Assembly: GCA_951406725.2 (NCBI GenBank) | Contig: OX597820.1 | Span: 100,874,001 to 100,938,000 of the forward strand | From: Octopus vulgaris | Taxonomy: Eukaryota | Reading direction: 5' to 3' | DNA: 64,000 nt | Part shown: positions 1-61,275 of the stretch, in pieces | Layout of the letters: each line of letters starts with the position of its first letter | Numbering within the stretch: position 1 is the first letter of the stretch | Made by a program: the position numbers and the translations under genes | The notes under the pieces: generated by a model | The model's database searches: none | What the model was told of the DNA's origin: nothing | What the model saw: only the letters and a program-made list of their open reading frames with translations

Positions 1-805
1 TACCTCAAGTCTTTCATCCTCACGACGCAGGACATTGGCAAATTTTTCCTTCTCTGCTTCCCCTCTGGCTAGATAGACCTGTCTCCTGGCTTCCCTTCTG
101 GCAGACTGATACACTTCCCTGCTACCACCGTTCTTCCAGGCCTTCCAAGCCTGTTTCTTTTGTCTAATAGCCCTGTCAACAATATTGTTCCACCACCACG
201 TTATTTTGGGTCTTAAGGGGACTTTGCACCAGCCACAGATCTGGTCAGCGGCTTTCAGCAGGTTGTCCCTCAGAAGCGTCCAGTTGTCTTCTACCCCATG
301 CGTAGCTATACTCCCTTCCATTTCGTCTAAAGCTTCAAATAACATATCTCTAAATCTCTGTCCATTCGCAGGGTCTTTAAGCTTCCAGACCCTTCTTCTC
401 CATGTTGGTCGTCTTCTAGTCGCCCTCTTAGTCCTGATCCTAAAGTCACTAACTACCAGTCTATGTTGTGGGGTGCATTCTTCACTTGGGAAGGTTTTGG
501 CATTTATAAGCAGCCATCTTTCCCTTTTTCTGGCAAGGATGTAGTCGATTTGGCTAGTATGCCGGCCCGATCGGTAGGTGACCAGGTGGCTTGTCGGTTT
601 CCTGAAGTTAGTGTTGCAAATCATAAGACTATTCGCATCGCAGAACTCCAGCAGCCTGGTTCCCTCCTCGTTGCGGGAACCATAACCGTAGCCTCCATGC
701 ACGCCATGGAAGCCCCCAGCACGTCGTCCAACATGCCCATTGAAGTCACCAGCCACAAAGAGAAGGTCCCTGTCGTTCGTCAATGATGTGGTCTGCAGTA
801 GGGTG

Positions 806-808
<3 letters not shown>
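1..808 (-). mobile_element. RTE/BovB-clade LINE fragment (AP endonuclease and linker), runs off window start
   Basis: Minus-strand translation LFVAGDFNGHVG...SRNEEGTRLLEFC...SQIDYILAR...ECTPQHRLVVSDF...TWWWN; frameshift near 215. Confidence 0.92.
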
Positions 809-864
<56 letters not shown>

Positions 865-868
865 TATA

Positions 869-1133
869 TTACATACATATTAGAGGGATGACCACTAAGT
901 GGACATCCATTATGCTAAAAGCGAGCTTACATTCTGGCGTTTGCTAAATTTTCTTGAGAACAATCCATAGGGTGTCTACTCCTAGCATAATGGATGTCCA
1001 CTTTAGTGGTCATCCCTCTTTTATGTATGTAATATAATTTTTCTGAATCTTCAGATTTTGCAATATGCTAGACCGCTGGTTTTAAATTGATATTAATCAA
1101 ATTAATATTCAATTTTTCACCCTTATTATTTTA

Positions 1134-1138
<5 letters not shown>
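869..1138 (+). mobile_element. PLE-like 3' terminal remnant with 5' inverted duplication
   Basis: ~869-917 is the reverse complement of ~983-1032; end motifs ctagaccgctggt and cacccttatt resemble those of the 1706, 12561 and 14140 elements; between microsatellites. Confidence 0.6.
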
Positions 1139-1683: not shown

Positions 1684-1705
1684 CTATATATATATATATA
1701 TATAT

Positions 1706-2019
1706 AAGCAATTAGGGGTTTAGCAACGAATTGCCTTACCGCACACCGAATTTAGAAATAGCAGTCAAAGAGATTATAGCTATTTCTTCTACTAAAAGGG
1801 AGATCTGTGTTTTTACTGAGATCTCCCTTTTAGTAGAAGAAATAGCTATAATCTCTTTGACTGCTATTTCTAAATTCGGTGTGCGGTAAGGCAATTCGTT
1901 GCTAAACCCCTAATTGCTTAGTATTACTTAAATTTTCCTCGAATGAGGCTTTTACATGCCGAAGACTACTTGGTGTAATTGATAATTATTCCAAATTAAT
2001 TAATTTCACCCTTCATTGT

Positions 2020-2021
<2 letters not shown>
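1706..2021 (+). mobile_element. PLE-like terminal remnant with perfect ~100 bp fold-back
   Basis: 1706-1806 is the reverse complement of ~1819-1919; tail motifs shared with 12561 element; both flanks (TA)n. Confidence 0.65.
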
Positions 2022-2067
<46 letters not shown>

Positions 2068-4105: not shown

Positions 4106-4659
4106 GTTTTTAGACTTTGGGATTTGAGGATTTGGGCTTTATTTTTTTCTTGAAGATAAGTAATCTTGTAAGTTATTATCTTTAGCTATATATTATCCAT
4201 TATCCTTTCAAAGCTGCAGATAAGTTCCTTATTGATAACAGAAGAGAGCTTCTGAAACACCTCATATGCATTGTTTGAGATTTGGAAGATAAGAAAGAAT
4301 GAATGAAAAATCATTTTGTTGTTAAATCAGAGGAAAAAGCTTCAGATGGAACTGTGGCTTCGTTGAAATATCATTATAAGATGATACATGGTATTATATT
4401 TTCTATCAAAGGTGTCTATATGTGGCATGAGTGTATATGTGTGTGTGTGTGTGTATGAATGTATGTGTGTGTGTGTGTGTGAGAGAGTTTTATAATATCT
4501 ATTTCAGTTCCTCACACTTTAGTGTATAAATCTCATCAATCCGAATTTTGCCACTTTGTCTTTCTTGCACATTAGTCTTTGGATTTGATTCAACCTTGTC
4601 ATATATATGTATGTGCATGAAAACTATGTATATGTATATGCATTTGTATGTGTATATAT

Positions 4660-5075
4660 ATAGTTAATCCAAACAAGAAAGACCAAAAAAACACAACAAA
4701 GCGAGGACGTGGAACAAATATAGTATTATTGGACGCTCAGGAAAGAAGGAAAGAAGGAGGGTTTAACGTTTTGGGCGGAGCTCTTCGTTGGAAACATAGG
4801 AGAAGGAAAGATCCAGAGAAGGGAAGACAGAGGAAAAAAAATCGCCAACGGTACACACGCGGTCACATCTTTCCTGAGCGTCCAATAATACTATATTTGT
4901 TCCACATCCTCGTGTTGTTGTGTTTTTCTTTTGTGCTTTCTTGTTTGGATTAACTTTATATACCGCACGCTCACATGGACCCCAGCCTTCTGAGTGCCTG
5001 AATACCAATTCCTTGATTTTTACACCTACGGATTACTGTTACCATCCATTCTTCCGGAGTACACCACTGAAATCG

Positions 5076-5363: not shown

Positions 5364-5384
5364 GGTATTATATATATATATATA

Positions 5385-5632
5385 TATATTTACTGAGGAA
5401 GGCCAGTTTATGGGATTACCCTGGGTTTCCCTTTCATAAAGGATTTAACTTTATGGTGTATTGTCAGACCCCAAAACTTGTTGGCCTAAGACCTCATCAA
5501 AATATGGTCTTAAATTGAAGAGGTCTTAGGCCAACAGGTTTTGGGGTCTGTTGATATGCCATGAAATTAAACCTTTTAGGGACAGGAAACCCAGGGTAAT
5601 CCTATAAATCGGCCTTCCCCAGAAAAATATAT
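5385..5632. mobile_element. Imperfect fold-back (MITE-like) element
   Basis: ~115 bp arms (actgaggaaggcc...ggcctaagacctc / gaggtcttaggcc...ggccttccccag), TA flanks. Confidence 0.7.
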
Positions 5633-5709
5633 ACTGCTCTACATCTTAAACTGTGCTTCTTGTCTGGATATGTTTTCTACAAATGATATATATATATATA
5701 TGTATGTAT

Positions 5710-7166: not shown

Positions 7167-8067
7167 TTGGGTTGTCCCATAAATAATGGGTGTTTTGTAT
7201 ACTTCTTTTATTTTTCAACATTAAAATAAACAAATTTCTTTTTTAATCTAAAATATACTCTCCTTCATTTTCTAGAATGCTCTTCCACCTGTCTGGTAGA
7301 CTTGCATGGCCCGTTGTACAAAATTCACTTGTCTATGAGGAAAAATACTCCTCCAGTACTGTCCTGACCTCATCTACAGAATTCATATTGTTTCCATCGA
7401 AATGATTTTGAAGACTGCAGAAAAAATGATAATTAGATGAGGTAATGTCTGGCGAGTATGGTGGGTGGAGCATCGTTTCCCATTCAAACTCCTCCAGCCT
7501 TTGGAATGTCATCCTCACTGTATGTGGCTGAGCAGTATCCTGAAACCAAAGTTGGTCGTTTTATTTCTAGAACTGATTTGAATGACTGGTTGAATAACTA
7601 AATCCAAGCTTCTCTGCTAGTTCCTCAACAGTTGTGCTGGGATACTGTTCCACCAAGGTTTGCAAGAATCCTTGTCGAGCTCTACAGATCTTCCAAGATG
7701 AAACTCATTTCCTAGGCTGTAGTTTCTGGCTTGGAATTTCTGAAACTACCATTGACATTGGCTTATGCTTATTGTCATATCCCCATATATTGTATTAATA
7801 TTCCTCACACTTTCTGTTGTGTTGTTGCCTTTATTGAACTCATAAAGCAAAATATGCTGAATGTGCACCCTTATCATTTCCATTATAGTTTTGAAAAAAA
7901 TAACTGTTAAAATCGAGCTGCACTCTTCAAAACTTGCACTAAGAATAAGGACAAGGTAAAATTACTACCTACTTTTATAACAAGTTGATGCAAGTAGTTT
8001 ATCCCATCTTCCTACAACTTTTAGTTCAAGCAATTGAAAAAACTGCATTATTTATGGGATGACCCAA
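7167..8067 (-). mobile_element. Internally deleted mariner element with both TIRs
   Basis: TIRs ttgggttgtcccataaataatg / cattatttatgggatgacccaa, TA TSD; HPPYSPDITSSNYHFFCSLQNHF motif. Confidence 0.92.
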
Positions 8068-12500: not shown

Positions 12501-12560
12501 TAAAATTATCATATATATATATTATTTATATTATTATATATATATATTATATATATATAT

Positions 12561-13150
12561 AATCAACTAATAAGGGTGAGAAAATTGGATACTAATTTAA
12601 TAGTACATCCATTTAACACCAAGTGTCTTAGTGCATAAAAAACCTGGATTTCGATAAATTTTATACATAAATATAAGAGAGTAACCACTATGTGGTCGAC
12701 TCTAGCACTAAAAATAGATCCGCTAGGTTTCAGCCACAAAGAAGTGTTTCCGATGAAAGTTAGCACAACTACTAGTGCAAACGAACAGGGCAAATAAAAA
12801 TAACAAAAATGCAGATTAGTTCAGGACAATTGTTTCGCTATTAATAAATTATGTAATTTTACTCACATAACATATCTATAGCTCTTCAGCCGAACCCGTC
12901 CAGGATACAATTTACTCAACCGCACGTTAGATTTTACCATAACGATAAACACCCGTGCGGTTCAGTCAATTGCATTCGCTGTTATAATTCAAGTGCCCCT
13001 GCCACAGCCCGCCAAAATTCACGGAAACAGATACTACATCCAAAATTAAATGTAGTATAATTACAATCAACTAATAAGGGTGTTTGTGGTTGAAACCTAG
13101 CGGATCTATTTTTAGTGCTAGAGTCGACCACATAGTGGTTACTCTCTTAT

Positions 13151-13156
<6 letters not shown>
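12561..13156 (-). mobile_element. 504 bp ORF-less hammerhead-bearing monomer (retrozyme/PLE-like) with terminal direct repeat and 5' inversion
   Basis: aatcaactaataagggtg at 12561 and 13065; 13083-13156 inverts 12667-12740; within (TA)n. Confidence 0.75.
12819..12895 (-). ncRNA. Type I hammerhead ribozyme with extended stem II
   Basis: gttcgg CTGAAGA gctat...atagc GAAA caattg TC ctgaac; palindromic stem III ACAATTGT; GUC site. Confidence 0.85.
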
Positions 13157-13201
<45 letters not shown>

Positions 13202-13205
<4 letters not shown>

Positions 13206-14075: not shown

Positions 14076-14139
14076 GGATATATGTGTATATATATATACA
14101 CACACACACACATTCATATATGTATATATATATATATAT

Positions 14140-14385
14140 ACATTTCCAGTGGTCTAACGTGCAAAAATTTTATCCGTTATTTTTGTGCTTTACAGAACCT
14201 AGCTGTTCTTTCTAGTGTGCTGAATTCCTTATGTGGATTCCTGATGTGTTTAAATATACGATATATCGTATGACTAATATATAGTCTTCTTGACTAATTT
14301 TTTTGCACGTTAGACCACTGGAAATTTAAATTTTGATTGAGTGTTTTAATCTTAATTAAATTCCATTTCCCTTTGACATGATTCA
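14140..14385 (+). mobile_element. PLE-like terminal remnant with 5' inverted piece
   Basis: atttccagtggtctaacgtgcaaaaa (14141-14166) inverted at ~14300-14325; end motif like 869 element. Confidence 0.55.
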
Positions 14386-14458: not shown

Positions 14459-14463
<5 letters not shown>

Positions 14464-14645
14464 ATCCAAACAAGAAAATACAGAAAAAAAGAGAAAAAAA
14501 CACAGCAACGCAGGACGTGGAACAATTAAAGTATTATTGATGCTCAGGAAAGAAGGGAAGGAGGGTTTAACGTTTCAAGCGGAGCTCTTCGTCGGAAACA
14601 AGGAGAAGGAAAGATCCCAAGAAGGGAAGACAGAGGAAAAAATAT
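14459..14645 (-). mobile_element. Family H short element with near-canonical hammerhead (14565-14599)
   Basis: gttt CCGACGA agagctccgctt GAAA cgtt aaac. Confidence 0.7.
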
Positions 14646-19959: not shown

Positions 19960-20259
19960 AAGAGGAATTTAAGTTTTCAATAGAGCTCTAACACTGCCAG
20001 AGTTTTCTTGTTTGAATTCTGAAATAACTACCTATATTTTTTACACGAACCATTTAGTTATCTTTTCCACAAGATATAGTGTTTAGTTTATTACAAATTT
20101 TTAGTCATGAAAATATGTAAATATCAAGACAGTTAGATGGCAGGAACATTCATCAGAGACGTAGTTTATCTACTGCATATAGGAATCATCAACATAATCA
20201 TCATCGACTCTAGTGGCATGAAGACACATTTTCTTCTTTCTCCAAGACAACTTTATTTT

Positions 20260-20807
20260 ATAGTGGACATATACTGTCAACTCAATGTGACAGTTCCTAC
20301 AGGGAATTACACCTAGGAAACATCGACGTCTCCTGTCGGCTTTGACACATTTTCTGTGTCCTTATATTTGCAAAGAGGAGGCAATCACCCCTGCCAGCTG
20401 AGACTAAGCACCTGAAGACCACCGCTTATGTCTCTCTGACATTTAGAAATTCAATATTTCTAATTTCGGTGATCGGTAAATAAATTTTACTGAAAATATG
20501 AGATATTTGCGAAGAGGTTGCAGTCATCTCAGCGAGCGAGACAAGCTACCCTGAACTGACGACGAGCAATACACTCTGAAACATATGTCTTCAGGTGCTT
20601 AGTCCCAGCTGGCAGGGGTGATTGCCTCCCCTTTGCAAATATAAATGTGTCAAAGCCGACAGGAGACGTCGATGTTTCCTAGGGCTAAATGGCGGTGGTG
20701 TAATTCCCTTATGGGATTGTCACATTGAGATGACAGTATACAACCACTATATTGCTCCACCACCACTTATGTCTCTCTTGAGACATTTAGAAATTCAATA
20801 TTTCTAA
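20260..20807 (+). mobile_element. ~341 bp hammerhead-bearing monomer with direct terminal redundancy, 5' inverted arm and TSD
   Basis: Direct repeat 20419-20463 / 20760-20807; 20260-20419 inverts 20587-20751; flanks aactttatttta / aacttttatttta. Confidence 0.78.
20550..20595 (+). ncRNA. Minimal type I hammerhead ribozyme
   Basis: cctgaa CTGACGA c gag caataca ctc t GAAA catatg TC ttcagg. Confidence 0.8.
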
Positions 20808-21643
20808 CTTTATTTTAGGCATTACCAAATTAAAATTTTCTTTGGAATAGTTGCTAAAAGGAATTATAATTACCTGAGGAAAACCTGCCCTCAGTACCAA
20901 CCAAAAATGAAAGCTTTTTTTCTAGACTTTATTTTATTTATTTGTATGTGCCAGTCACAGTTTCAGATTCTAAATGGTTATCAGACACAATCACAAGTCA
21001 AGATACTGTAATAGCAAACAAGACAAAAATGACAACACAAAAGCAAATTACACAGCTGAATGAGTAAAAAGAAACAAAAATTACAAAAGGTTTCTTAAAC
21101 AGTTTGAAAAATAAATTTAAGATAACAATAATAACAGTAATGATAATGACATTCACACAAGGTCAGGCATTTAAATTTTTTAAGATAGTGGTTGTGTTAA
21201 AGGTAATTATACTTCGTTTGTAACACAAACAAAAGTTTAACACAGTTCCCAGATTTTTAAAAATTTATCTGGGAGAATTTTGTAAAACCTAATGGTGTTT
21301 CTATACCACAGGTTCTGATTGAAGAGGAAGCAAAGGAAAAAATTACATATCTTAGTTTTAGAAAGGATGGCACCATACTAGAATTCCTATTGAAGCAACA
21401 TTATAACAAACATTTTAGGATATCCCAGGGAAAATGAGAAAAGATATGGTGCTGTCTGTTGGATTTTTAAAACTGAAAACTAAACCAAAATATAGGCTGA
21501 AATTGTTTATATATGTGTATATATCTATACACACACACGCACATACACATACACACACACATACATGCATACATACATACATACATACATACATACATAC
21601 ATACATACATACATACATACATACATACATACATACATAATTA

Positions 21644-30362: not shown

Positions 30363-30415
<53 letters not shown>

Positions 30416-30420
<5 letters not shown>

Positions 30421-30537
30421 GTAAATGTAATATGTGACAATTAATAATTGTCACATATTACATTTACAGATAAATTCCTCTATTTACATAATATCGAGGT
30501 CTCTTTCATTCTTTTGATGTCTTACCATTTTTATCAA
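30416..30537 (+). mobile_element. PLE-like end with perfect 27 bp fold-back in (TA)n
   Basis: tatctgtaaatgtaatatgtgacaatt aat aattgtcacatattacatttacagata. Confidence 0.5.
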
Positions 30538-30782: not shown

Positions 30783-31015
30783 TTTCAACAATATTTTTTG
30801 TTTATCAATGATAAATTTAAAAATTAGAAAAACATCTTTAAAAGTTTCAACGTTGACAAATTAAAATGTTTCAATGTTGACAAATAAAAATGTTAATTTT
30901 TGAACATATTAATTTATCAACATTGAAACATTTTAATTTGTCAACATTGAAACTTTTTAAAATGTTTTTCTAATTTTAAACTTTTACCATTGATAAACAA
31001 AAAATATTGTTGAAA
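30783..31015. repeat. AT-rich palindrome, ~110 bp arms with internal subrepeats
   Basis: tttcaacaatattttttgtttatcaatg ... cattgataaacaaaaaatattgttgaaa. Confidence 0.85.
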
Positions 31016-41932: not shown

Positions 41933-42313
41933 GTTTATATATATATCAATTATTTTATATATATCAATTATCTTGCTTCAATGAGCTTCAGCTATAAGCA
42001 CATGAAATGTTCAGGCAAGTTGTGACTCAACTTGTCACTACTTGCCTGAAGAATTTGCATGCCTGCAGATGAAACTCAAAAAAGCATGAGACTGACTCAA
42101 CAAATAAAGCATCATTAATCTCTACCAAGGCACCGAGTATGCTTGTATTCAACAGTTAATATAACATTGAGAATAGGTGCAGACACACACACACATTATT
42201 TAAAACTGTTTCATATGGTTTATGTGCTACTTTAACCAAATCAAACTATTTTAAATAATACATATAATTCCTACTAAATGTATTGAGTGCCCTTTTCTTT
42301 CATTTTATCCACT

Positions 42314-56066: not shown

Positions 56067-56512
56067 ATTACGGAGATGTACTTGCATAGCAAGTGACTTG
56101 ATCTGAGATCGTGTGCTGAAAGAAAAACAATTGCAGCATGGAAGAAGTTTGTAAGCCATTCAAGAAAACTCAAAAACTGTTAGTTTCATGGCACTATTTA
56201 AATACAGATATCCTGATGCATCTATGTAATGATATGAAAGGGGTAGTTAGTTTTTAGGGTTAGTTTTAGGGTTAGTTAGGGTTAGGGTTAGGGCTAGGGT
56301 GTCATTACACGTCCACACAGTGTACATTTAAAATGTTTTGTACGTAACACCTGTATTTAAGTAGTATCGTTAAGGGACCTCAGTATTTAAGTATTACCAG
56401 TTTCAGCATTAAAATTTCATTTGTGTCAAAATATTTTCGTCGCTTTGAAACTATGACCTGTTCACGAACAAGACTGCACAAAAGTGATGCAGCACTAAGT
56501 TTTGTCAGTGAG
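56067..56512. repeat. Unclassified interspersed repeat (second copy at 60327-60565)
   Basis: ttacggagatgtacttgc...gatctgagatcgtgtgctgaaa shared. Confidence 0.8.
56189..56399. mobile_element. MITE with internal TTAGGG repeats and 6 bp TSD
   Basis: gtttca on both sides; imperfect TIR tggcactatttaaatac / gtatttaagtattacca; absent from 60327 paralog. Confidence 0.75.
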
Positions 56513-57245: not shown

Positions 57246-58430
57246 CAAGGGGTGGACAAAATAATGGAAACACCTTAAAATTTAACAAATTTTTTTAAAT
57301 ATTGGGTAGGATAGCCTTTGGCAGTAATTACATCTTGAATTCTATGAGGTATAGACTCGTACAAAGTTTGAATTGTTTCCAAAGGAATTTTTCTCCATTC
57401 TTCAGCTAAAACAGTGTCCAATTCTTGTAGTGATGATAGAGGAGGATTTTGACTCCTTGCTTGTTTTTCTGAAATGCACCATAAATGTTCAATAATATTG
57501 AGATCTGGAGACTGTGGTGGCCAGATAGGATGTTCAACTTCACTAGAATGTTCCTCGTGCCATTCAGTAACAACTTTAGCTGTGTAAATTGGTGCATTGT
57601 CATCCTGAAAGATTGTGTTTCACTCCAGAAATAGTTCTGCAAGCATAGGATGAATTTGATCAGATAAAATACTTAAATAGTTTTGACTATTAATTCTGCA
57701 TTGAACGGAAACTGTTGAGCCGGCAGATTTCCAAGATAGAGTCCCCAAGATTATCACAGATCCTCCTCCATGTTTAACAGTTGGAAGAAGGCAGTCTGGG
57801 TCAAATGCTTCTTTTGGCTATCTCCTCACGTATACTTGGCTGGTGGTCGGAAATAAGGTAAAGGATGACTCATTCGAGAAAATAACATTCTTCCACTGCT
57901 CTAGGAACCAATTCTATAGGTTTTTACTCCACTCTAAATGCTTTGCAACGTTTCTTTTTGAAAGTAATGGTTTTCTGATTGCAGCCCTCCCATGAAATCC
58001 GGCTTTGTGAAGCTGCCGGTGAACAGTTTTTGTGGAAACTGGGTTCTCAAGGTGGCCATTAAGCTCTGCAGTAATTTTGGGATCCTTTCTAACAATTCAC
58101 ATGCGTCCGATGTTCCATATCTGCAAGTTTTGGTTTTCTTCCGGAGTTTTGTTTCGATGAGGAGGTTTTTCCCTCTTTCTCAAAAAGTATGTCATTACTT
58201 TCAATCAGTACTTCTTGATACTCCAAACATTTCGGCTGTTTTCATTATGCTAGTGTTTGCAATACCAGCACTAACAATTTGACCTCTTTGAAAGTCCGAT
58301 AGATCTGTCATTTTAATGAATTTTAATTACCTTTTTTCTGATGATATCTGAAAAGAAACAGCAATTTTAACAAAATATATTAAGCAACACTAATAATAAA
58401 TAAAAAAACATAAAAATAGACAAGCTTTTG
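57246..58430 (-). mobile_element. Tc1 (DD34E) transposon relic, near full-length transposase from 58311
   Basis: MTDLSDFQRGQIV...VIFSNESSF...FQDDNAPIYTA...WPPQSPDLNIIEHLW; one TIR after TA. Confidence 0.9.
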
Positions 58431-59168: not shown

Positions 59169-59192
59169 ACTGTATTGACAATCCTACTGGAT

Positions 59193-59991
59193 TACTATTT
59201 CTAAATCTCACAATGTGAGATATTCAGTAACAGTATTTTGTAGTAAAGATTGTTTCCAACATAACATGGCAGTCTTGGTTTAGGACTAATGTTGCCGTAA
59301 TTTATCCCTGGGGAGACATCATCTCCAGCTGGCTATACGACACACTCTGTGTTCTTATATTTTCGAACAAGGGAATCTAGCACCTCCACTCAGCTCAAAA
59401 CAATATCTGTGTATCGCAATTTCTGGGTTATTTCCCTTCATCAGCACAGAATAATTGTTCAGCTAGAGTTGGTGCCACAAAATTCCCGTTCAAAATATAT
59501 AGTTTTCAAAGTGACAACTAGTCACTGATTTATGAATTAGAAAATTGCTATTTCTAAATCTCACAACGTGAAATTATTAAGCAACAGTACTTTGTAGTTA
59601 AGCACCTGACTGGCCCTCATGCCAGTGGCACATAAAAGCACCCACTACACTCTCGGGATGGTTGGCATTAGGAAAGGCATCCAGCTGTAGAAAATCTGCC
59701 AGATTAGATTGGAGCCTGGTGCAGCCATCTGGTTCACCAGTCCTCAGTCAAATTGTCCAACCCATGCTAGTGTGGAAAGCAGACGTTAAACGATGATGAT
59801 GAGGATGATGATGATAATTGTTTGCCAACATAATATGGCAGTCCTGGTTTAGGACTAATGCTAGTAGATTCCCTTCTTCGAAAATATAAGGACACAGATC
59901 GTTTTGTATAGCCAGCTAGAGACGATGTCTCCTGGGGCTAAATTACAGCAACATTAGTCCTAAACCAGAACTGCCATGTTATGTTGGCAAG
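59193..59991 (-). mobile_element. ~353 bp hammerhead-bearing monomer with partial tandem, 5' inversion and 14 bp TSD; RTE tail inserted at 59604-59815
   Basis: ctatttctaaatctcacaa at 59195 and 59548; ~59864-59996 inverts ~59249-59380; caatcc(t/c)actggat at 59179 and 59992. Confidence 0.8.
59406..59450 (-). ncRNA. Minimal type I hammerhead ribozyme
   Basis: tctgtg CTGATGA a ggg aaataa ccc a GAAA ttgcga TA cacaga. Confidence 0.8.
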
Positions 59992-60171
59992 CAATCCCAC
60001 TGGATGTTGTTATATGTTGCTAATTACAATGTGCTTCTACACGTTGTAGTTTTTGAATGAAGCCACCTCACTGGTTGGGTAAGCAGGCCAACATTCCCAA
60101 TTCATTACCCATTTATGGCTGACTGAACTCAGATCCTCCAACTCTCTGTTTCTGTGTCTGTCTCTCTCCCT

Positions 60172-60660: not shown

Positions 60661-61016
60661 CCCTCAACTTTCTTTATGGAGAGTGTTTTGGAAATGCTTA
60701 TAAAAGCTCCAATTTCATTATGCCAGCTACAGCCTAACGAGGCCAACTGGCAATACTAGTTTTTCGGGTCACTCTGAGCTGTGCTTATATAATGTAGGAT
60801 AAATATAGCAATAAGGATAATAATAACCCGTGGATGGAATTTATAAATATACTTTAATGCACGTTTCCACAATTTATGCTCCTTAAGATCATAGTTCGTA
60901 TTCCTGGGAGGATTATAAAGTACAGGCTGTAATATCCATGGAGATTGGATAGATCATATTCTTGCATTTGCACACATAATGATGCATTAAAATATTTATA
61001 AATTCCATTCAAAGAT

Positions 61017-61275
61017 TATCATTATTATTATTACTATTTTATGTTTGACTTTTGCTTTACACTTGTACAAGTTGGCTCCAAGTCTCACCCAGAGACATCA
61101 TGAGACAACAAGTTGGAAAATCATGCTGGTGTTATGCCTAGGGTGCCATTTATTTGGTTTTGTACATAGTGTTGTTCTAGAGAATGTTTAAGAAACAATA
61201 AGAAAACTGTATGTTTGTTTTAAAACTTGAGATTACATAGAAAGTATTTTGTGTAGGATATGAGCAGTTCCCCTG
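61017..61275 (-). mobile_element. R4/Dong-like non-LTR retrotransposon 3' end in (TAA)n
   Basis: Minus strand [12 protein letters not shown] then ~200 nt UTR and (TAA)n. Confidence 0.7.

Follow-up and report, generated by a model that had tools for sequence, protein, structure and literature searches.

A high-copy non-coding 504-bp hammerhead repeat of Octopus vulgaris, likely a non-LTR retrozyme inserted by Penelope-type machinery

Introduction

What kind of element places a hammerhead ribozyme motif, a short direct repeat and an inverted fragment of the same sequence between two (TA)n tracts, and which machinery would insert it? This question is raised by a locus of Octopus vulgaris at positions 12561–13156 of a 64,000-nt window (assembly GCA_951406725.2, contig OX597820.1, forward-strand positions 100,874,001 to 100,938,000), the window being the whole stretch of DNA that was analyzed and the frame for all coordinates given here.

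Insertions of Penelope-like elements (PLEs) are described as partial tandems that carry an inverted 5′-truncated copy and a one-sided tail of 30–40 bp, with a bias toward (TA)n targets (PMC8557442). A PLE protein is reported to nick AT-rich DNA on both strands and to extend them, with starts at two internal sites between which the tail lies, and the ribozyme is dispensable in vitro for that protein (PMC11167929). Retrozymes, which are known as expressed circles (PMC7229834), are described as derivatives of PLE terminal repeats that occur as solo monomers (bioRxiv 10.64898/2026.07.22.740005). The published link between retrozymes and PLEs rests on co-occurrence and sequence relationship, and the enzymes that move animal retrozymes, as well as the circular template, are stated as open (PMC7229834; bioRxiv 10.64898/2026.07.22.740005). 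For O. vulgaris, 190 PLE families are reported, with PLEs at 6.8%. Two additional papers (PMC6765202 and PMC3088659) served as background only, in the parts available.

Anatomy of the insertion

The locus is built around a full 504-bp non-coding unit on the minus strand (12561–13064; 35.5% GC), which is strongly structured on that strand and is followed by an 18-nt wrap (13065–13082, minus strand) equal to the last 18 nt of a preceding unit, giving a partial tandem. The 18-nt direct repeat that the original prediction placed 504 bp apart is exact (12561–12578 and 13065–13082), and no 18-nt repeat arose in any of 2000 dinucleotide shuffles of the element. A target-site duplication was considered for this repeat and rejected; because the repeat matches the termini of two related pieces, B and C, described below, the wrap is element sequence. 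The same prediction called the locus a complete 504-bp wrapped monomer, a description that is apt for the full unit plus 18 nt, but completeness extends to a single ribozyme.

The wrap passes through a blunt junction into an inverted, 5′-truncated second copy (13083–13156, plus strand), which lies head to head with the unit and whose 3′ end enters (TA)n. This 74-bp piece, which had also been foreseen, is identical to 12740–12667 at 72/74 positions, extendable to 76/79 (13161/12662), and pairwise alignment places its source segment at 12662–12740 on the minus strand. Simple fold-back was rejected as its origin, since the arm is not adjacent to its source. Both outer ends of the locus are 3′ ends of the element, and each enters (TA)n: a degenerate target microsatellite abuts the primary 3′ end of the unit (12511–12560; TRF, 12511–12561, period 2), and a perfect (TA)n target lies at the 3′ end of the inverted arm (TRF, 13154–13202), as expected from the (TA)n surroundings originally noted. 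Between the primary 3′ end at 12561 and a secondary 3′ end at 12662–12667 lies a one-sided tail of ~100 nt (12561–12661, minus strand). The locus displays the features of a PLE insertion, with a partial tandem, an inverted 5′-truncated copy at the 5′ end and a (TA)n target; a one-sided tail between two putative RT start sites is likewise present, with recurring ends at 12561 and 12662–12667, and measures ~100 nt against the published 30–40.

Stops occur in all six frames of the unit, an 85-aa frame of the element has no Pfam match, and no Pol III A or B box was found in the element at ≤1 mismatch to the consensus. No match to a PLE RT or GIY-YIG endonuclease was found in the 148 of 212 window frames that were scanned. 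The element lacks the ORF with telomerase-like RT and GIY-YIG domains of an autonomous PLE; it is considered non-autonomous because the unit encodes no protein and the 148 of 212 frames hold no PLE ORF remnant.

The hammerhead ribozyme motif

A type I hammerhead motif is located at 12818–12896 on the minus strand, with the core elements CUGANGA, GAAA and UH arranged around three stems and with both ends in stem I. The core is intact, as had been proposed: CUGAAGA occupies 12889–12883, GAAA 12836–12833, and C17 falls at 12825, in agreement with the predicted cut at 12825/12824. Stem I pairs 12896–12890 with 12824–12818 through 7 bp, of which 2 are G-U. Stem III, ACAAUUGU at 12833–12826, is an 8-nt palindrome, as originally described, and corresponds to the short palindromic helix III of dimer-type hammerheads; its folding energy is +2.4 kcal/mol as a 2-bp hairpin (unstable) and −6.4 kcal/mol as an 8-bp dimer duplex (stable). 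Stem II is long, although its length is corrected from ~50 nt to 46 nt (12882–12837, minus strand), with three helices of 5, 4 and 9 predicted pairs (18 in all) and a 6-nt loop, which departs from the canonical helix II of 4 bp and from the 7–8 bp of min-HHR. Such an arm may lose the contact between loop 1 and loop 2. Upstream of the ribozyme lies a long imperfect hairpin (12905–12975, minus strand), which is among the most abundant modules of the family by contig depth.

A relaxed hammerhead descriptor yields three motifs in the window (in the 504-bp element, at 20556 and at 59444), compared with a mean of 0.06 over 100 shuffled windows, none of which holds more than one. At Rfam curated thresholds, none of the three is found; for the 504-bp element, Rfam reports no hammerhead family, with 0 matches at gathering level and 23 at E ≤ 10 that are AT-repeat noise only.

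The unit folds with a z score of −5.5, and 0 of 100 shuffles fold as well. As a circle, the sense (ribozyme) strand reaches −141.5 kcal/mol versus −104.5 kcal/mol for the antisense strand. In the modeled circular monomer, predicted pair probabilities are 0.42–0.78 for stem I and 0.90–0.99 for the base of stem II, and an active-like ribozyme fold is predicted at 0.4 kcal/mol above the minimum. When 17 family variants were mapped on the single-sequence circular fold, five kept a pair, six broke one and six were unpaired.

Abundance and variation of the family

Part of the stretch is contained in 20 of the 24 listed runs, which come from four organisms and 10 studies and none of which is recorded as RNA. 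The family was surveyed in four of them (X1, X2, X12 and X17) with contigs placed at ≥85% likeness, the run types "DNA?" and "RNA?" being guesses. Contigs that match the element at ≥85% number 669 and 581 in the two DNA-type runs and 63 and 14 in the others, and they cover 29/29 bins in X2, X1 and X12 and 24/29 in X17. Summed depth, which is not a copy number, amounts to a few thousand for 12975–13064 and climbs to 2–3 × 10^5 elsewhere; some modules are 20–100 times deeper than this segment. The contig depth shows a high-copy family with subfamilies. The depth in X12 tracks the DNA profile (Spearman 0.92 with X2), is relatively 2–5 times greater over the ribozyme side, and is uninformative on expression.

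The periodicity of 504 bp, which was expected to recur in other copies, does so as the same head-to-tail joint, 13064>12561 ("back 504"), in X1 (DNA?) and X12 (RNA?), with 46 and 34 letters, respectively, on the short side. Record 9 of X12 extends over 153 nt of the upstream unit and shows 13 differences there; it thus represents another copy with the same junction. Since the joint recurs in two of the four runs, 504 is taken as the unit of the family. The joint is not listed in X2, the largest DNA-type run, nor in X17. X17 presents a joint 12999>12561 with unknown letters between, which probably marks a sister subfamily of similar length. Among the contigs listed from the four runs, none spans the 504-bp unit, and they are too short to reveal two ribozymes in tandem.

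The catalytic core is free of variants among 40 of the 67 variant rows, while the window copy differs from the family contigs mostly by 1–10%. At 12823, the majority letter turns a stem I G-U pair of the window copy into G-C; in the same 40 of 67 rows, majority changes at 12819 (stem I) and 12878 (stem II) disrupt a pair each, unless the partner positions co-change. Stem II is spanned without gaps in other copies (X1 record 6 and X12 record 13), and a variant with a loose end at 12851 in X2 retains the long hairpin over its reach. In the upstream hairpin, record 23 of X17 and its loose end carry two two-sided changes at 12953/12927 and 12968/12912 that keep or create pairs, and 12920/12960 and 12908/12972 appear broken in record 23, all judged by hand. 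Covariation in the family is suggestive only.

Beyond these runs, no match was found among metagenome contigs for a 23-nt ribozyme motif, nor among viral contigs for one of 19 nt. A 15-nt motif gave 119 loci in the 7 of 64 parts scanned, all of them consistent with chance and set aside; the best alignment spans 44 nt, and a core-like motif lies upstream in 1 of the 119. The family may already stand in the O. vulgaris repeat library under another label.

Two recurring 3′ ends

The secondary 3′ end seen in the inverted arm recurs in other copies. Among 24 of the 151 loose-end rows, loose ends in (TA)n are present at 12662 in at least five records of X1 and at least three of X17, and at 12669 in X17. 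Record 17 of X17 is a second head-to-head copy, in which the outer end of the inverted arm is again 12662. The inner ends of the opposite-strand joints vary (12782, 12819, 12870, 12897 and 12955) without being tied to the cut site, a scatter such as random 5′ truncation would give.

Two pieces within the window are related to the 3′ part of the element. Piece B (865–1135, plus strand) matches it at 70% over 175 columns (z 19.8) and piece C (1705–2024, plus strand) at 69% over 118 columns (z 8.1), with 0 of 200 shuffles scoring as well in either case; the aligned stretches are 918–1135 and 1806–2020. Because the 3′ 120–175 nt of the element are ~70% identical to these pieces, it is not isolated. 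Both share its layout, with tails of ~99 and ~104 nt between the two ends. The pieces are themselves 5′-truncated and carry head-to-head inverted arms of 54 nt at 94% and 102 nt at 100%. A segment of piece C (1864–1906) resembles the start of the 344-bp unit described in the following section (z 6.4), which loosely links the two families. The anatomy and the abundance of the family are direct observations, as is the recurrence of both the 504 junction and the second 3′ end.

Other elements in the window

The two other hammerheads belong to a pair of elements with periods of 341 and 353 bp, taken here as 20438–20781 (period 341–344) and 59195–59547 (353). Local alignment of the 504-bp element with them gives z 0.3 and 1.7, with 61/200 and 17/200 shuffles scoring as well; this is shuffle level and agrees with the earlier claim of a distinct family. 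The two members of the pair are related to each other (z 11). The further claim that several ribozyme retroelement lineages coexist here stands. All three elements are built alike, from a unit, a wrap and an inverted arm, and each has one hammerhead whose stem III is palindromic or nearly so.

In the element with a 344-bp period (element D; 20248–20810, plus strand), the inverted arm stops at 20587, no more than 3 nt from the predicted cut (after 20589), as if the cDNA had run off a ribozyme-cut 5′ end; its wrap of 52 nt is about equal to its tail of 59 nt. The 353-bp-period element (59190–59996, minus strand) has a wrap of 59 nt and a tail of 57 nt and is interrupted at ~59600–59815 by a SINE-like repeat with a 44-nt duplication. 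A further (TA)n-anchored family with a decayed hammerhead-like core is found at 4655–4962 and 14460–14640 (minus strand); in the former, unit and inverted arm share one 3′ end, which leaves no tail. Additional local inverted repeats, several of which start at (TA)n, occur at 5381–5633, 14136–14331, 30393–30494, 30783–31015, 41971–42089 and 60799–61042; these six are probably more 5′-inverted PLE stubs. The window also contains a LINE endonuclease remnant (1–879, minus strand; Exo_endo_phos_2, below cut-off), a mariner HTH_48 remnant (7749–7961, minus strand), a DDE_3 transposase remnant (57278–57619, minus strand) and a short interstitial (TTAGGG)n tract (56239–56300).

Proposed mechanism and alternative explanations

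The locus is best explained as one dispersed member of an abundant family of non-coding 504-bp hammerhead repeats, likely a non-LTR retrozyme (a non-autonomous PLE) that was likely inserted by a Penelope-type RT/GIY-YIG endonuclease. A Penelope-like mobilizer is indicated by the inverted piece, the one-sided tail and the (TA)n target. Counting against this explanation are the presence of the 504 joint in only two of four runs, with none in X2, the lack of a listed contig that spans the unit, the difference between the ~100-nt tail and the published 30–40 nt, and the pair-breaking majority changes at 12819 and 12878. In addition, no autonomous partner emerged from the comparison, described below, with published cephalopod PLE consensi, and in vitro cleavage of such ribozymes often fails, 1 of 9 Xenopus dimers having been cleaved (bioRxiv 10.64898/2026.07.22.740005).

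Every RNA and enzyme step of the mechanism is one that we infer. Tandem source loci would be transcribed, and paired hammerheads, held by the dimer form of stem III, would cut out 504-nt monomers, which could be ligated into circles. At a (TA)n tract, a PLE protein would cut each strand and start cDNA synthesis from both ends, at two fixed internal positions that lie ~100 nt apart. One cDNA of 522 nt, starting from 12561, would copy the whole unit, pass across the ribozyme cut site and continue 18 nt into the previous unit, and another, starting from 12662–12667, would stop after ~74 nt; the two would then be joined bluntly, head to head. Since the long cDNA crosses both the predicted cut site and the unit junction, its template would have been circular, an uncut multimer or rejoined by a jump. 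Because it holds a single hammerhead, the window copy would probably be unable to excise a 504-nt monomer or circle by itself and is thus likely an inert offspring. A bolder form of this explanation, in which the insertions of an abundant long-armed retrozyme, overlooked by standard searches, are the footprint of Penelope machinery copying ribozyme-made 504-nt circular RNA, with both target strands priming at the two fixed sites and one cDNA passing the ligated cut site, is put forward tentatively, as something that we would sooner doubt than assume. If true, it would tie retrozyme circles to the target-primed reverse transcription of PLEs and provide a minimal non-coding substrate on which to test this.

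The same insertion could also arise if the element is real and PLE-mobilized but its long-armed hammerhead is dead or irrelevant to transposition, the copies coming from uncut tandem transcripts without any circle; we hold this to be a serious possibility, albeit not a favored one. Ribozyme mutants of an anole PLE inserted normally, with uncut RNA as the main substrate (PMC11167929). Three of the five opposite-strand joints lie at positions upstream of the cut site (12870, 12897 and 12955), and the 46-nt stem II may, as noted, forgo its loop–loop contact. Against a dead ribozyme speak a core that has no variant in the 40 of 67 rows considered and has stayed intact in a copy that differs mostly by 1–10% from the family contigs, and the inverted arm of element D, which ends ≤3 nt from its predicted cut site.

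A less probable explanation regards the 504 bp as the pseudo-LTR or 3′ UTR of an autonomous PLE and the locus as an ordinary 5′-truncated partial tandem, with no separate short non-autonomous unit. The anatomy would be identical, PLE copies are described as mostly 5′-truncated with a single terminal repeat (PMC8557442; bioRxiv 10.64898/2026.07.22.740005), and O. vulgaris has 190 PLE families. Additionally, the modules that are 20–100 times deeper than 12975–13064 imply more abundant relatives of unseen full length, although these stay colinear past 12964, where a loose end is 22/30 identical and ungapped by hand alignment. The recurrence of the same 504 junction in other copies, the absence of a coding remnant in every frame of the unit and the predicted folding of the entire unit as one structured RNA all favor a separate short unit. 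Least probable of all is a hammerhead repeat that a LINE (RTE, CR1 or Tx1) mobilized through twin priming, or else a satellite unit that spread as DNA. A 5′ inversion with deletion resembles L1 twin priming, and LINE endonuclease remnants lie within the window. LINEs were also left open as partners by Cervera and de la Peña (PMC7229834). Neither form accounts well for a second 3′ end that stays at 12662 from copy to copy and has its counterpart at the homologous position of pieces B and C; the element has no poly(A) or tail of its own, a target duplication is not discernible, and spread at the DNA level leaves two 3′ ends that both abut (TA)n unexplained.

Relation to known elements

With Penelope-type insertion of a non-autonomous unit as the preferred reading, the closest known systems are the non-LTR metazoan retrozymes (PMC7229834; bioRxiv 10.64898/2026.07.22.740005), which are described as non-coding units of a few hundred bp (51–972 bp reported) with GC <45%, a type I hammerhead, a weak palindromic helix III, a ribozyme fold that is free in the predicted circle, head-to-tail junctions and solo monomers. 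The octopus element shares these features, being non-coding, 504 nt in a range of 150–1000 nt and 35.5% GC (<45%), with a type I hammerhead and a head-to-tail period. In contrast to the canonical helix II of 4 bp in those retrozymes, its arm has 46 nt (18 pairs), and it differs further as a dispersed copy with an explicit PLE insertion signature.

The same signature, with a hammerhead upstream of the 3′ end, is reported for PLE insertions of the Hydra, Neptune and Naiad clades with (TA)n bias (Craig et al. 2021, PMC8557442; Frangieh et al. 2024, PMC11167929), and Hydra-1_Obim has the CUGAAGA core and palindromic stem III that are present here (PMC8557442). Unlike these, the 504-bp element has no RT/EN ORF, and its tail is ~100 rather than 30–40 nt. 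By eye, the 3′ ends of five of the six published cephalopod PLE consensi in the available part of the PMC8557442 supplement are unlike it, and four of five element motifs are absent from that part. Chlamys elements such as MRC1 are also non-autonomous PLE derivatives with pLTRs and head-to-tail multimers, but they are algal, mostly lack canonical hammerheads and have an identified autonomous partner (PMC8557442).

The min-HHR of PLEs (Cervera and de la Peña 2014, PMC4209133) is likewise type I and has a G10.1–C11.1 pair and a palindromic helix III that is predicted to work in dimeric form, whereas its helix II has 7–8 bp, less than half of that in the octopus element. Forms with a long helix or loop II are described for a few plant PLEs, including PLE-X1 of spike mosses with a loop II of 29–35 nt (PMC8557442 supplement), and the long stem II is therefore rare rather than unprecedented. 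In the same supplement, the record before Physarum-Pp2 ends at its 3′ side in what appears by eye to be a type I hammerhead, in which stem I is a perfect 6 bp and stem II is ~100 nt long; this hammerhead is absent from the ribozyme table of PMC8557442, as far as the table is available. Long-armed hammerheads in PLEs may be commoner than surveyed.

No cephalopod retrozyme was found in the literature search, where Craig et al. (PMC8557442) was the only relevant work for octopus or cephalopod with hammerhead or retrozyme; two papers on octopus repeats do not mention ribozymes in their available text. Searches that joined non-autonomous Penelope with hammerhead, or extended stem II with hammerhead and retrotransposition, returned nothing.

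Conclusions

The 504-bp element is of a known kind. Its unusual points are a 46-nt stem II that is missed by Rfam and a tail of ~100 nt, together with an unusually clear PLE footprint on a retrozyme-sized unit. Since such a stem II lies outside the Rfam models and the 7–17-nt spacer used in the published PLE survey (PMC8557442), surveys of such genomes may undercount ribozymes. The one locus described here is probably inert. With the full PLE signature and two recurring 3′ ends on a short non-coding unit, the question of how such repeats are moved becomes testable with one genome and one purified protein.
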